1,138 nucleotides of DNA from Escherichia coli (lineage in GTDB: Bacteria; Pseudomonadota; Gammaproteobacteria; Enterobacterales; Enterobacteriaceae). Positions 1 to 1,138 of this stretch are shown in pieces. Made by a program: the position numbers and the translations under genes. The stretch is taken from the NCBI RefSeq assembly GCF_003334305.1, contig NZ_QOWS01000061.1; one strand, given 5' to 3'. The notes beneath the pieces are model-generated. The model worked only from the letters and a program-made list of their open reading frames with translations, made no database searches and was not told the origin of the DNA. The first letter of the stretch is position 1. Each line of letters opens with the position of its first letter.

Positions 1-159
1 CAGCCTGCCGTGACGGTCATACCGGTAAAGATAGTGCGCGTCACGGGCGATACGGTTATCCGGCCACATGCTGAGGGCGCTGTCCGGGTGCAGCTCCGGG
101 TCGGGCAGGCGGTTACCTGCCGGGTCTGTGGCATACGGGATATCAATGCCCAGGTTACA
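1..159 (-). CDS. Orphan / 5'-truncated Rhs core fragment (start-less, may be annotated as pseudogene); encodes an internal Rhs core segment with a YD repeat and continues past the window edge
   Basis: Minus-strand translation of 159..1: [53 protein letters not shown]. It contains the canonical YD-repeat pattern YxYDxxGRL and a segment I recall from E. coli-type Rhs cores ([21 protein letters not shown]...). It is in the same frame as the immunity ORF, directly after its TAA and a 27-nt AT-rich linker (186..160). No ATG or SD at its 5' boundary. GC-rich like the core at 966..1138. Confidence 0.7.
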
Positions 160-186
160 TATAATAATAAGAGCAATTAACTTAAT

Positions 187-513
187 TTATTTGTTTATAA
201 TACGCTTACTTAATACAAACCATTGAATATACCCTCCTGACAGAAAATAAAGCCATATTATTATCGCCATAATATACTTACTATCAATCCTTACGCCAAT
301 AATGTCTGATACAGTCCCTATAAATATTAGAGCAATAAAGAATACTATGCCTGTTGGAAAACATATTACCATCATTCCATAAGACATGAGACTAATTAAC
401 TCGCTCACATCACGAGTGGAGTCTAATAGTGAAAGTCTATGCATGGAAAAGAATAGTATTAAAAGCGATAAAGCCAGCCATATAGCTCTGAATAAAAAAA
501 TAATATATTTCAT
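187..513 (-). CDS. Small integral membrane protein (108 aa, about 3 predicted transmembrane helices); putative cognate Rhs immunity protein (RhsI)
   Basis: Complete ORF ATG(513..511) to TAA(189..187). The start overlaps the toxin stop by 1 nt (TAATG). GGAG Shine-Dalgarno at 524..521, 7 nt upstream of the ATG. Three hydrophobic stretches (about residues 5-23, 43-66, 80-100) in [22 protein letters not shown]... The position immediately 3' of an Rhs-CT is the canonical immunity gene location. AT-rich like the toxin domain. Confidence 0.78.
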   Translation of the reverse strand: MKYIIFLFRAIWLALSLLILFFSMHRLSLLDSTRDVSELISLMSYGMMVICFPTGIVFFIALIFIGTVSDIIGVRIDSKYIMAIIIWLYFLSGGYIQWFVLSKRIINK

Positions 514-1138
514 TACATCACTCCGGTGAATACAAATCTAATAAAACGTCCAATGTTATTTCCGGAGCACTTCATCTTACATGTTTCTAAAGAATCATTA
601 GACCAGTCTTGGCAGTTTTTAAATAGCCCTAAATTTATAGGTGTGAATATATCAGGCAATACAGAATAACGCGGCCTTACCTCTTTAAACTTCCCTTTTA
701 AACAGTTCTCCACACAACTATTATCGGTTTCAACGAGGTCACAACGGCCAGCAGCTTCTTTTGTATCATTACTTGCTTTACCTGGCCCCCATAGACCATC
801 TCCTTTTGATTCTCCCCGTTGGTCTTGGCCACCACAAGTATAGTCCCCTTTACCATCTGGGACACAAAGATATTGATGATAGAACGGATTCCCCCATATA
901 TCTGGACCGCTTCTTTCACCAGTTCCGCCCATTGAATGCAGTGGCTTAATGCATTTTAGTGTTTCTAATCCTAATGGATCTATATTTGAGATCGGATTCA
1001 ACGGATACTGATAAAAATTCCATCCCCCCTTCAGCCCAATCGGATCCTGAGTGATATACCTCCCCTGCAGCGGGTCATAATAGCGGTGGCGGTTGTAATA
1101 CAGGCCGGACTCCTCATCATACTGCTGCCCCGGCAGCC
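513..1138 (-). CDS. Rhs family polymorphic toxin, 3' portion (5'-partial, continues beyond window edge): end of conserved RHS repeat-associated core (1138..966) followed by a variable Cys-rich C-terminal toxin domain (965..516), stop TAA at 515..513
   Basis: My own minus-strand translation in the frame of the 513..1001 track ORF runs without a stop from the window edge: [57 protein letters not shown], then the track ORF sequence. This matches the consensus of the RHS repeat-associated core domain (YDPxxGRxxxxDPIGLxGGxNxYxYxxNPxxxxDPxGL). The track's M at 1001 is a TTG codon inside this conserved segment (Leu of YPL), not a real start. GC-rich core sequence gives way to AT-rich sequence right after the DPLGL codons. 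Confidence 0.85.
521..524 (-). promoter_or_regulatory. Shine-Dalgarno (GGAG) for the immunity gene, located inside the 3' end of the toxin coding sequence
   Basis: Minus-strand sequence ...TTCACCGGAGTGATGTAATG: GGAG at 524..521, 7-nt spacer, ATG at 513..511. Confidence 0.5.

Follow-up and report, generated by a model that had tools for sequence, protein, structure and literature searches.

The 1,138-nucleotide stretch of DNA analysed here, referred to as the window, is the rhsC locus of Escherichia coli, with all coding on the minus strand (Table 1). In a megablast search of 5,426 complete E. coli genomes, the whole window aligned at 99.8-99.9 % identity to features annotated as rhsC, ybfB, and an Rhs protein with a missing N-terminus, and the range of identity between the window and the E. 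coli rhsC-ybfB-ybfO region was 99.6-99.9 %. The reverse complement of positions 3..1138 corresponds to NC_000913.3 733153..734288 of K-12 MG1655 (99.56 % identity, five substitutions), where the gene order is kdpFAB, ybfA, rhsC, ybfB, ybfO (pseudogene b0703), ybfC, ybfQ, ybfL, ybfD, ybgA, and phr. Positions 1..186 on the minus strand are the ybfB/ybfO junction and thereby the start of a known orphan Rhs fragment, as ybfO (b0703) in the K-12 series rhsC-ybfB-ybfO-ybfC is the same sequence as the orphan of the window. The K-12 record labels ybfO merely as a pseudogene.

Table 1. Features of the window (positions count from its first letter)
Feature	Position	Strand	Description
Orphan Rhs core fragment, first 141 nt (5' end of pseudogene ybfO)	1..141	-	Equivalent to rhsC codons 899-945
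ATG, sole canonical in-frame start of the orphan within the window	67..69	-	M of SMWPD
Spacer	142..186	-	45 nt, without clear nucleotide homology to the core
ybfB	187..513	-	108-aa hydrophobic protein, 30.9 % G+C, stop TAA 189..187; annotated 'protein YbfB'
RhsC C-terminal tip	513..965	-	150 aa (codons 965..516), 9 Cys, 41.6 % G+C, stop TAA 515..513
Main rhsC core, 3' end	966..1136	-	Last 57 codons; NCBIfam RHS_core positions 1205-1261, TIGR03696 match; rhsC annotation

The part of the main rhsC core that lies in the window closes with the PxxxxDPxGL core-end motif and leads into the C-terminal tip (CT), whose stop codon overlaps the ATG of ybfB by 1 nt. We found no Pfam family and no PDB sequence match for the RhsC tip, and searches of Pfam, NCBIfam, and PDB sequences returned nothing for the tip or for YbfB. 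Judged from its position only, ybfB is presumed to be the cognate immunity gene of the RhsC tip. The putative pair of RhsC tip and YbfB would combine a cysteine-rich toxin with a partner embedded in the membrane, a combination suggestive of a target in the envelope or periplasm. Genomic SELEX has placed RNA polymerase peaks for sigma-32 and sigma-E within rhsC just upstream of ybfB, at K-12 coordinate 732870 (PMC5493296), and these peaks could mark a candidate internal promoter for the immunity gene ybfB. By our approximate mapping, they are estimated to fall at about 600..700 of the window (minus strand).

Beyond the TAA of ybfB, the same reading frame stays open for 62 codons and runs off position 1. 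The initial annotation had described an Rhs core fragment in this frame, set apart from ybfB by a 27-nt AT-rich linker. The core fragment is borne out, as the frame is open and window 141..1 has 65.2 % G+C and is 99.3 % identical to K-12 rhsC nt 2695-2835, a stretch beginning at codon 899 of 1397; an identity this high reflects true homology and not chance. The linker was described correctly in its composition but not in its extent. The first 27 nt past the ybfB stop have only 14.8 % G+C, but clear nucleotide homology to the core does not begin until ATC CCG TAT at window 141 (GCG AAT CTG GAT ATC CGC ATC CCG TAT in the main rhsC, TGT AAC CTG GGC ATT GAT ATC CCG TAT in the orphan), and the non-core spacer is therefore 45 nt long rather than 27. 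The partial CDS predicted by PGAP, labelled 'RHS repeat-associated core domain-containing protein, missing N-terminus', begins 30 nt past the ybfB stop, at window 156, and we considered extending the homology back to this position, where the spacer encodes NLGID against NLDIR in the main gene (17/24 nt by eye). This extension was not adopted because nucleotide BLAST places the beginning of the homology at 141 and because the spacer moves together with ybfB.

The boundary carries no signals for translation. As claimed in the initial annotation, neither a canonical start codon nor a Shine-Dalgarno (SD) sequence is present between ybfB and the orphan, where only ATT and ATA codons occur, and the in-frame ATG further on has none of the 4-mers AGGA, GGAG, GAGG, and AAGG within 20 nt upstream. 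The K-12 record uses this internal ATG (L002 8221) as the first codon of the ybfO pseudogene, in contrast to the start of core homology at window 141 and the PGAP start at 156. A consensus scan for promoters found five promoter-like sites in the window, compared with 3.5 expected, and none at the ybfB/orphan boundary, while a consensus terminator scan of the window found none, including between rhsC and the orphan. No RNA family was detected in the window by an Rfam scan. Two plus-strand open reading frames (10..180 and 68..226) were set aside as unsupported antisense frames in G+C-rich coding sequence. We also considered whether the frame shared by ybfB and the orphan is significant, but a match of this kind has a prior of 1 in 3, and as the junction is identical in every genome examined, it represents one historical event, so the shared frame has no statistical weight.

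To gain insight into the orphan as a whole, we followed it past position 1 in complete genomes. In K-12, its frame is open for 516 codons counted from the ybfB stop, and its core (L002 8149-9192) corresponds to rhsC nt 2695-3738 with 97.2 % identity over 1,045 nt, which maps both endpoints of the homology with the main core. The orphan and main cores are thus direct repeats, 1,871 bp apart, with the main copy upstream. Residues 9-364 of the orphan align to positions 906-1261 of the 1261-position RHS_core model of NCBIfam, with a score of 770.8 bits that is under the 2000-bit cutoff of NF041261, the test for a full-length equivalog. With the alignment confined to positions 906-1261, the orphan is a fragment from the 3' side of the core rather than a gene in its own right, and it does not count as a functional full-length member of the family. 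The extended fragment also matches TIGR03696 (83.7 bits at aa 287-364) and the Pfam RHS family PF03527 (E = 1.9e-14 at aa 260-296), and since both matches lie beyond position 1, positions 1..186 of the window encode YD-shell sequence only.

The homology to rhsC ends at ...YQYPLNP, after which the orphan goes on, outside the window, with VQYIDSMGL (motif PVQYIDSMGL) and a YbfO tip of 152 aa past IDSMGL that is unrelated to the RhsC tip. The TGA of the orphan is overlapped by the ATG of ybfC (ATGA), a gene for a 189-aa protein with its own upstream ribosome-binding site, GAGAGGAA, and ybfC is the putative immunity gene of the YbfO tip. We found no Pfam, NCBIfam, or PDB relative of either the YbfO-CT or YbfC, and in the literature on ybfO, rhsC, and ybfB we did not find a functional study or any data on expression, toxicity, or immunity of YbfO-CT/YbfC. 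The expectations that the initial annotation had set out for this flank agree with what lies there. The fragment comes from well upstream of the core end (rhsC codon 899, RHS_core position 906), and the flank beyond position 1 contains, in K-12 as well as in six further genomes, a core remnant of considerable size, another motif of the DPxGL type (in the variant form IDSMGL), a distinct CT, and a second, putative immunity ORF in the form of the overlapping ybfC. Two observations that would have spoken against an orphan were also looked for, and the flanking sequence holds neither a complete, independently initiated rhs gene nor a gap where the downstream CT should be. IDSMGL takes the place of the usual DPxGL in all YbfO-type tips, be they orphans or parts of full-length genes (K-12 L002 9166..9192; L001, L003-L009), and because the serine in place of proline is common to attached and orphan copies, it is not a sign of decay.

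The arrangement is widespread. Using a 181-nt query spanning only the junction and a coverage of at least 80 %, we found the ybfB/ybfO junction in 2,660 of the 5,426 complete E. coli genomes, or about half, and the RhsC tip together with ybfB was covered in 2,536 of them. The order rhsC, ybfB, orphan, ybfC is present in K-12 and five other genomes, and in strain P393-F10 the order ybfB, orphan, ybfC is kept but the main gene upstream is of the rhsB type. The six sampled genomes that have the junction (L001, L002, L005-L008) all have it at the same position, and in each of them the 516-codon frame is uninterrupted and free of indels. When orphan copies were compared with attached ones, pN/pS was 0.07-0.15 for the core part and 0.11-0.19 for the tip, values that rest on few substitutions (0-11 in the CT). 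These low values may largely reflect the time during which the CT was attached to a full-length gene. An intact orphan would be expected of a young cassette, of a maintained one, and of one that is both, and intactness alone does not separate these. In some strains, ybfB or ybfC is flagged as frameshifted.

The site between kdp-ybfA and ybgA-phr is found in three arrangements, which we refer to as attached, one-orphan, and two-orphan. In the attached state, seen in O157:H7 TR01 and STEC435, a full-length 4,200-nt rhs gene carries the YbfO tip and is followed directly by ybfC, and the RhsC tip and ybfB are absent from the rhsC site. The length of this allele is exactly that predicted for the product of a crossover between the two repeats of K-12 (2,694 + 1,506 = 4,200 nt). 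The one-orphan state is the arrangement of the window. The two-orphan state is that of P393-F10 (L001 2140..11069), in which an rhsB-type tip, yhhH, and a frameshifted HEAT-repeat gene come first, followed by an orphan with ~470 nt of core, the RhsC tip, and ybfB, and then by the ybfO orphan and ybfC. In this strain, the pair of RhsC tip and ybfB is itself displaced to an orphan position behind a newer CT. The first orphan of P393-F10 starts at ref nt 612, the same point as an orphan located after yibA in strain E1 (L009 10917).

Mapping of single-nucleotide differences brought further evidence of exchange between the repeats. Compared with the orphan copy of strain 14EC007, the rhs gene of STEC435 (L004 7000..8505) has 25 differences, all at or before ref nt 861 and none in 862-1551, and compared with the main copy of 14EC007 it has five differences in nt 46-1040, four of them within the main-type part up to 861. 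At site 997, where it differs from that main copy, it carries the orphan allele, and it is identical to the K-12 orphan from nt 922 through ybfC. The STEC435 gene is a mosaic with a main-type 5' part and an orphan-type 3' part, with the crossover between nt 861 and 997, and the allele is a single-crossover relative of the arrangement in the window. In strain QML220614, the orphan (L008 5455..7005) carries main-type alleles at ref 366-726, a stretch that is a conversion tract. The main rhsC of the same strain (L008 3347..5128) is annotated with only 1,782 nt and apparently has a large internal deletion. We considered reading the direction of these events from the mosaics, but an insertion that turns the attached state into the orphan state and a deletion that does the opposite mirror each other exactly and leave the same signature.

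Exchange has not been confined to this locus. In strain 266917_2 (L011 5998..8289), beside yiiX/metJ, ybfB, the 45-nt spacer, and the beginning of the core are identical, and the orphan ends in another tip, which comes after NIDPLGL (YEFKSKNIDD...HTHGFY...) and precedes a gene annotated as 'RHS element protein dsORF-f3', while the RhsC tip before ybfB is truncated by ISAs1. The unit of ybfB, spacer, and core has moved between rhs loci. At the rhsB locus of strain E1, a YbfO-type tip is attached to a full-length-type gene, with 97.5 % identity over the stretch of core plus tip. Here (L009 220..7571, on the nikR side) the YbfO-type tip and a YbfC-like gene have ~96-97 % identity, the gene at the rhsB locus is split by an IS21-family element, and the downstream region holds an extended series of orphan immunity genes (NTF2-fold, DUF6258, pentapeptide, yibA, sel1). 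A partial junction match in strain H9Ecoli (L010 6136..6833) was considered as a donor context and rejected, as it is only an IS1 insertion, located exactly between ybfB and the orphan core at the spacer end. Overall, natural variation shows that the core fragment takes part in recombination, and these alleles are what the model of C-terminal displacement predicts (PMC2935791). They also bear on the proposal of the initial annotation that the core homology serves to swap a silent CT pair onto the main gene, which agrees both with the published model and with these recombinant-type alleles.

We therefore consider it highly probable that the orphan is a displaced former C-terminal part of an rhs gene at the rhsC locus, and that the repeat it forms with the main core allows sequence exchange and reactivation of the tip. 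The incoming module would have run from the 3' core through the RhsC-CT, ybfB, and the 45-nt spacer into the 5' part of the core fragment, and its recombination within the core would have pushed the older YbfO-CT/ybfC pair downstream. The displaced pair would have kept 1,045 nt of core but lost its promoter, the start codon with its ribosome-binding site, and the N-terminal and shell regions on which export depends. As start signals and export parts are both missing, the fragment as it stands cannot make a deliverable toxin. Homologous recombination between the 1,045-bp repeats of 97 % identity could then exchange sequence by gene conversion, and a crossover that deletes the segment of RhsC-CT and ybfB would fuse the expressed rhs gene to the YbfO tip. 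In the meantime, ybfC could be translated from read-through transcripts by way of its own GAGAGGAA and the ATGA overlap, and YbfC may protect the cell against neighbours that deploy the YbfO tip. We infer the toxin and immunity activities, the read-through transcription, and the selective benefit of ybfO/ybfC, as well as the retention of the fragment for tip swapping rather than as a by-product of displacement. To our knowledge, K-12-type strains lack a type VI secretion system, and a reactivated toxin might for this reason not be deliverable in many carriers.

An alternative history would make the orphan a pure relic, left behind by C-terminal displacement and now without any role, which looks intact only because it is young and has repeatedly been gene-converted from the main core. 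This is a real but lesser possibility, in our judgment somewhat unlikely. The pseudogene annotation and the absence of a start codon or SD fit such a history, as does a junction that traces to a single historical event common to 2,660 genomes; conversion tracts do exist, some strains have a flagged frameshift in ybfB or ybfC, and insertion of IS1 is tolerated. However, gene conversion would not account for the CT part, which has no correcting partner and yet is also intact and nearly invariant in the sampled orphans, with a synonymous bias relative to attached copies. Full-length alleles of the recombinant type at the same locus, together with the reactivation and selection of the equivalent orphan in Salmonella (PMC3967940), also argue against the absence of any role.

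A present role could also be envisaged inside the cell, where the orphan would be expressed on its own, through internal promoters and non-canonical starts located close to the end of the core, and would form a toxin-antitoxin-like pair with YbfC. Salmonella offers a precedent, as internal promoters have been described there 89 nt upstream of the PxxxxDPxGL-coding region, with a CTG start and an orphan toxin that acts intracellularly, and the promoter is stated to be present in E. coli as well (PMC7043789); the intact orphan frame and ybfC would suit such a pair. Nevertheless, we regard this as improbable. The region of the orphan concerned lies outside the window, and at the matching site of the main gene, which the window does include, the consensus scan detected nothing promoter-like. 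The literature yielded no E. coli data, and the proposal leaves positions 1..186 unexplained, ~900 nt upstream of the proposed promoter site. There is similarly only a slim chance that ybfO is reached by read-through from rhsC-ybfB, where the scan showed no terminator, and translated from an internal non-canonical start, so that an intracellular YbfO-CT/YbfC pair affects growth in the way reported for the Salmonella orphan. If this were true, the intact 516-codon frame would be kept by selection on intracellular activity and not only by rare recombinational reactivation. Finally, we give almost no credence to a complete, independently initiated rhs gene or to a YbfB-Rhs fusion made by read-through of the TAA. 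The frame shared with ybfB and the in-frame ATG at 69..67, once taken as the gene start, point in that direction, but the orphan covers only RHS_core 906-1261 and the N-terminal 898 codons are absent, so the complete-gene version is refuted by the flanking sequence. With regard to a fusion, the base after the TAA is A and no recoding signal is apparent, no SD precedes the ATG, and the shared frame goes back to one event with a prior of 1/3.

The displaced-tip reading that we favour places ybfO in a class that is well described. Orphan rhs-CT/rhsI modules were defined by Poole et al. 2011 (PMC3150448), and the creation of arrays of dissociated tips by displacement was described by Jackson et al. 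2009 (PMC2935791). The initial annotation had recognised this architecture, and the likeness is close: ybfO has a near-identical partial core, its own core-end motif, a distinct CT of low G+C that is unrelated to the main one, and a small downstream ORF, and its CT is found on full-length genes in other strains. Nothing essential differs from these modules, apart from the motif, which is IDSMGL in ybfO as opposed to DPxGL. The closest experimental parallel is the rhs-main/rhs-CT-orphan pair of Salmonella Typhimurium LT2 (STM0291/STM0292), in which a start-less orphan behind the main immunity gene is deployed after recombination with the main gene over 522 bp of 95 % identity (Koskiniemi et al. 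2014, PMC3967940). In both cases, core homology allows the fusion, but the homology is longer for ybfO (1,045 bp, 97 %), the CT and immunity sequences are different, and recombination at ybfO is deduced from natural alleles whereas in LT2 it was seen experimentally. Orphan cdiA-CT/cdiI modules (PMC3150448) are a further analogue, as they are silent tip/immunity cassettes downstream of an expressed gene that keep upstream coding homology, although they belong to another toxin family and use CdiB/CdiA two-partner secretion rather than an Rhs YD-shell.

The ybfO orphan, its class, and its mechanism are already known and published, and the locus adds little as a discovery. Its value lies in being a clean and well-populated natural example. 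Among complete genomes, the attached, one-orphan, and two-orphan states, together with a mosaic, a conversion tract, and a moved junction, document the displacement of C-terminal tips and the reactivation of orphans in E. coli.
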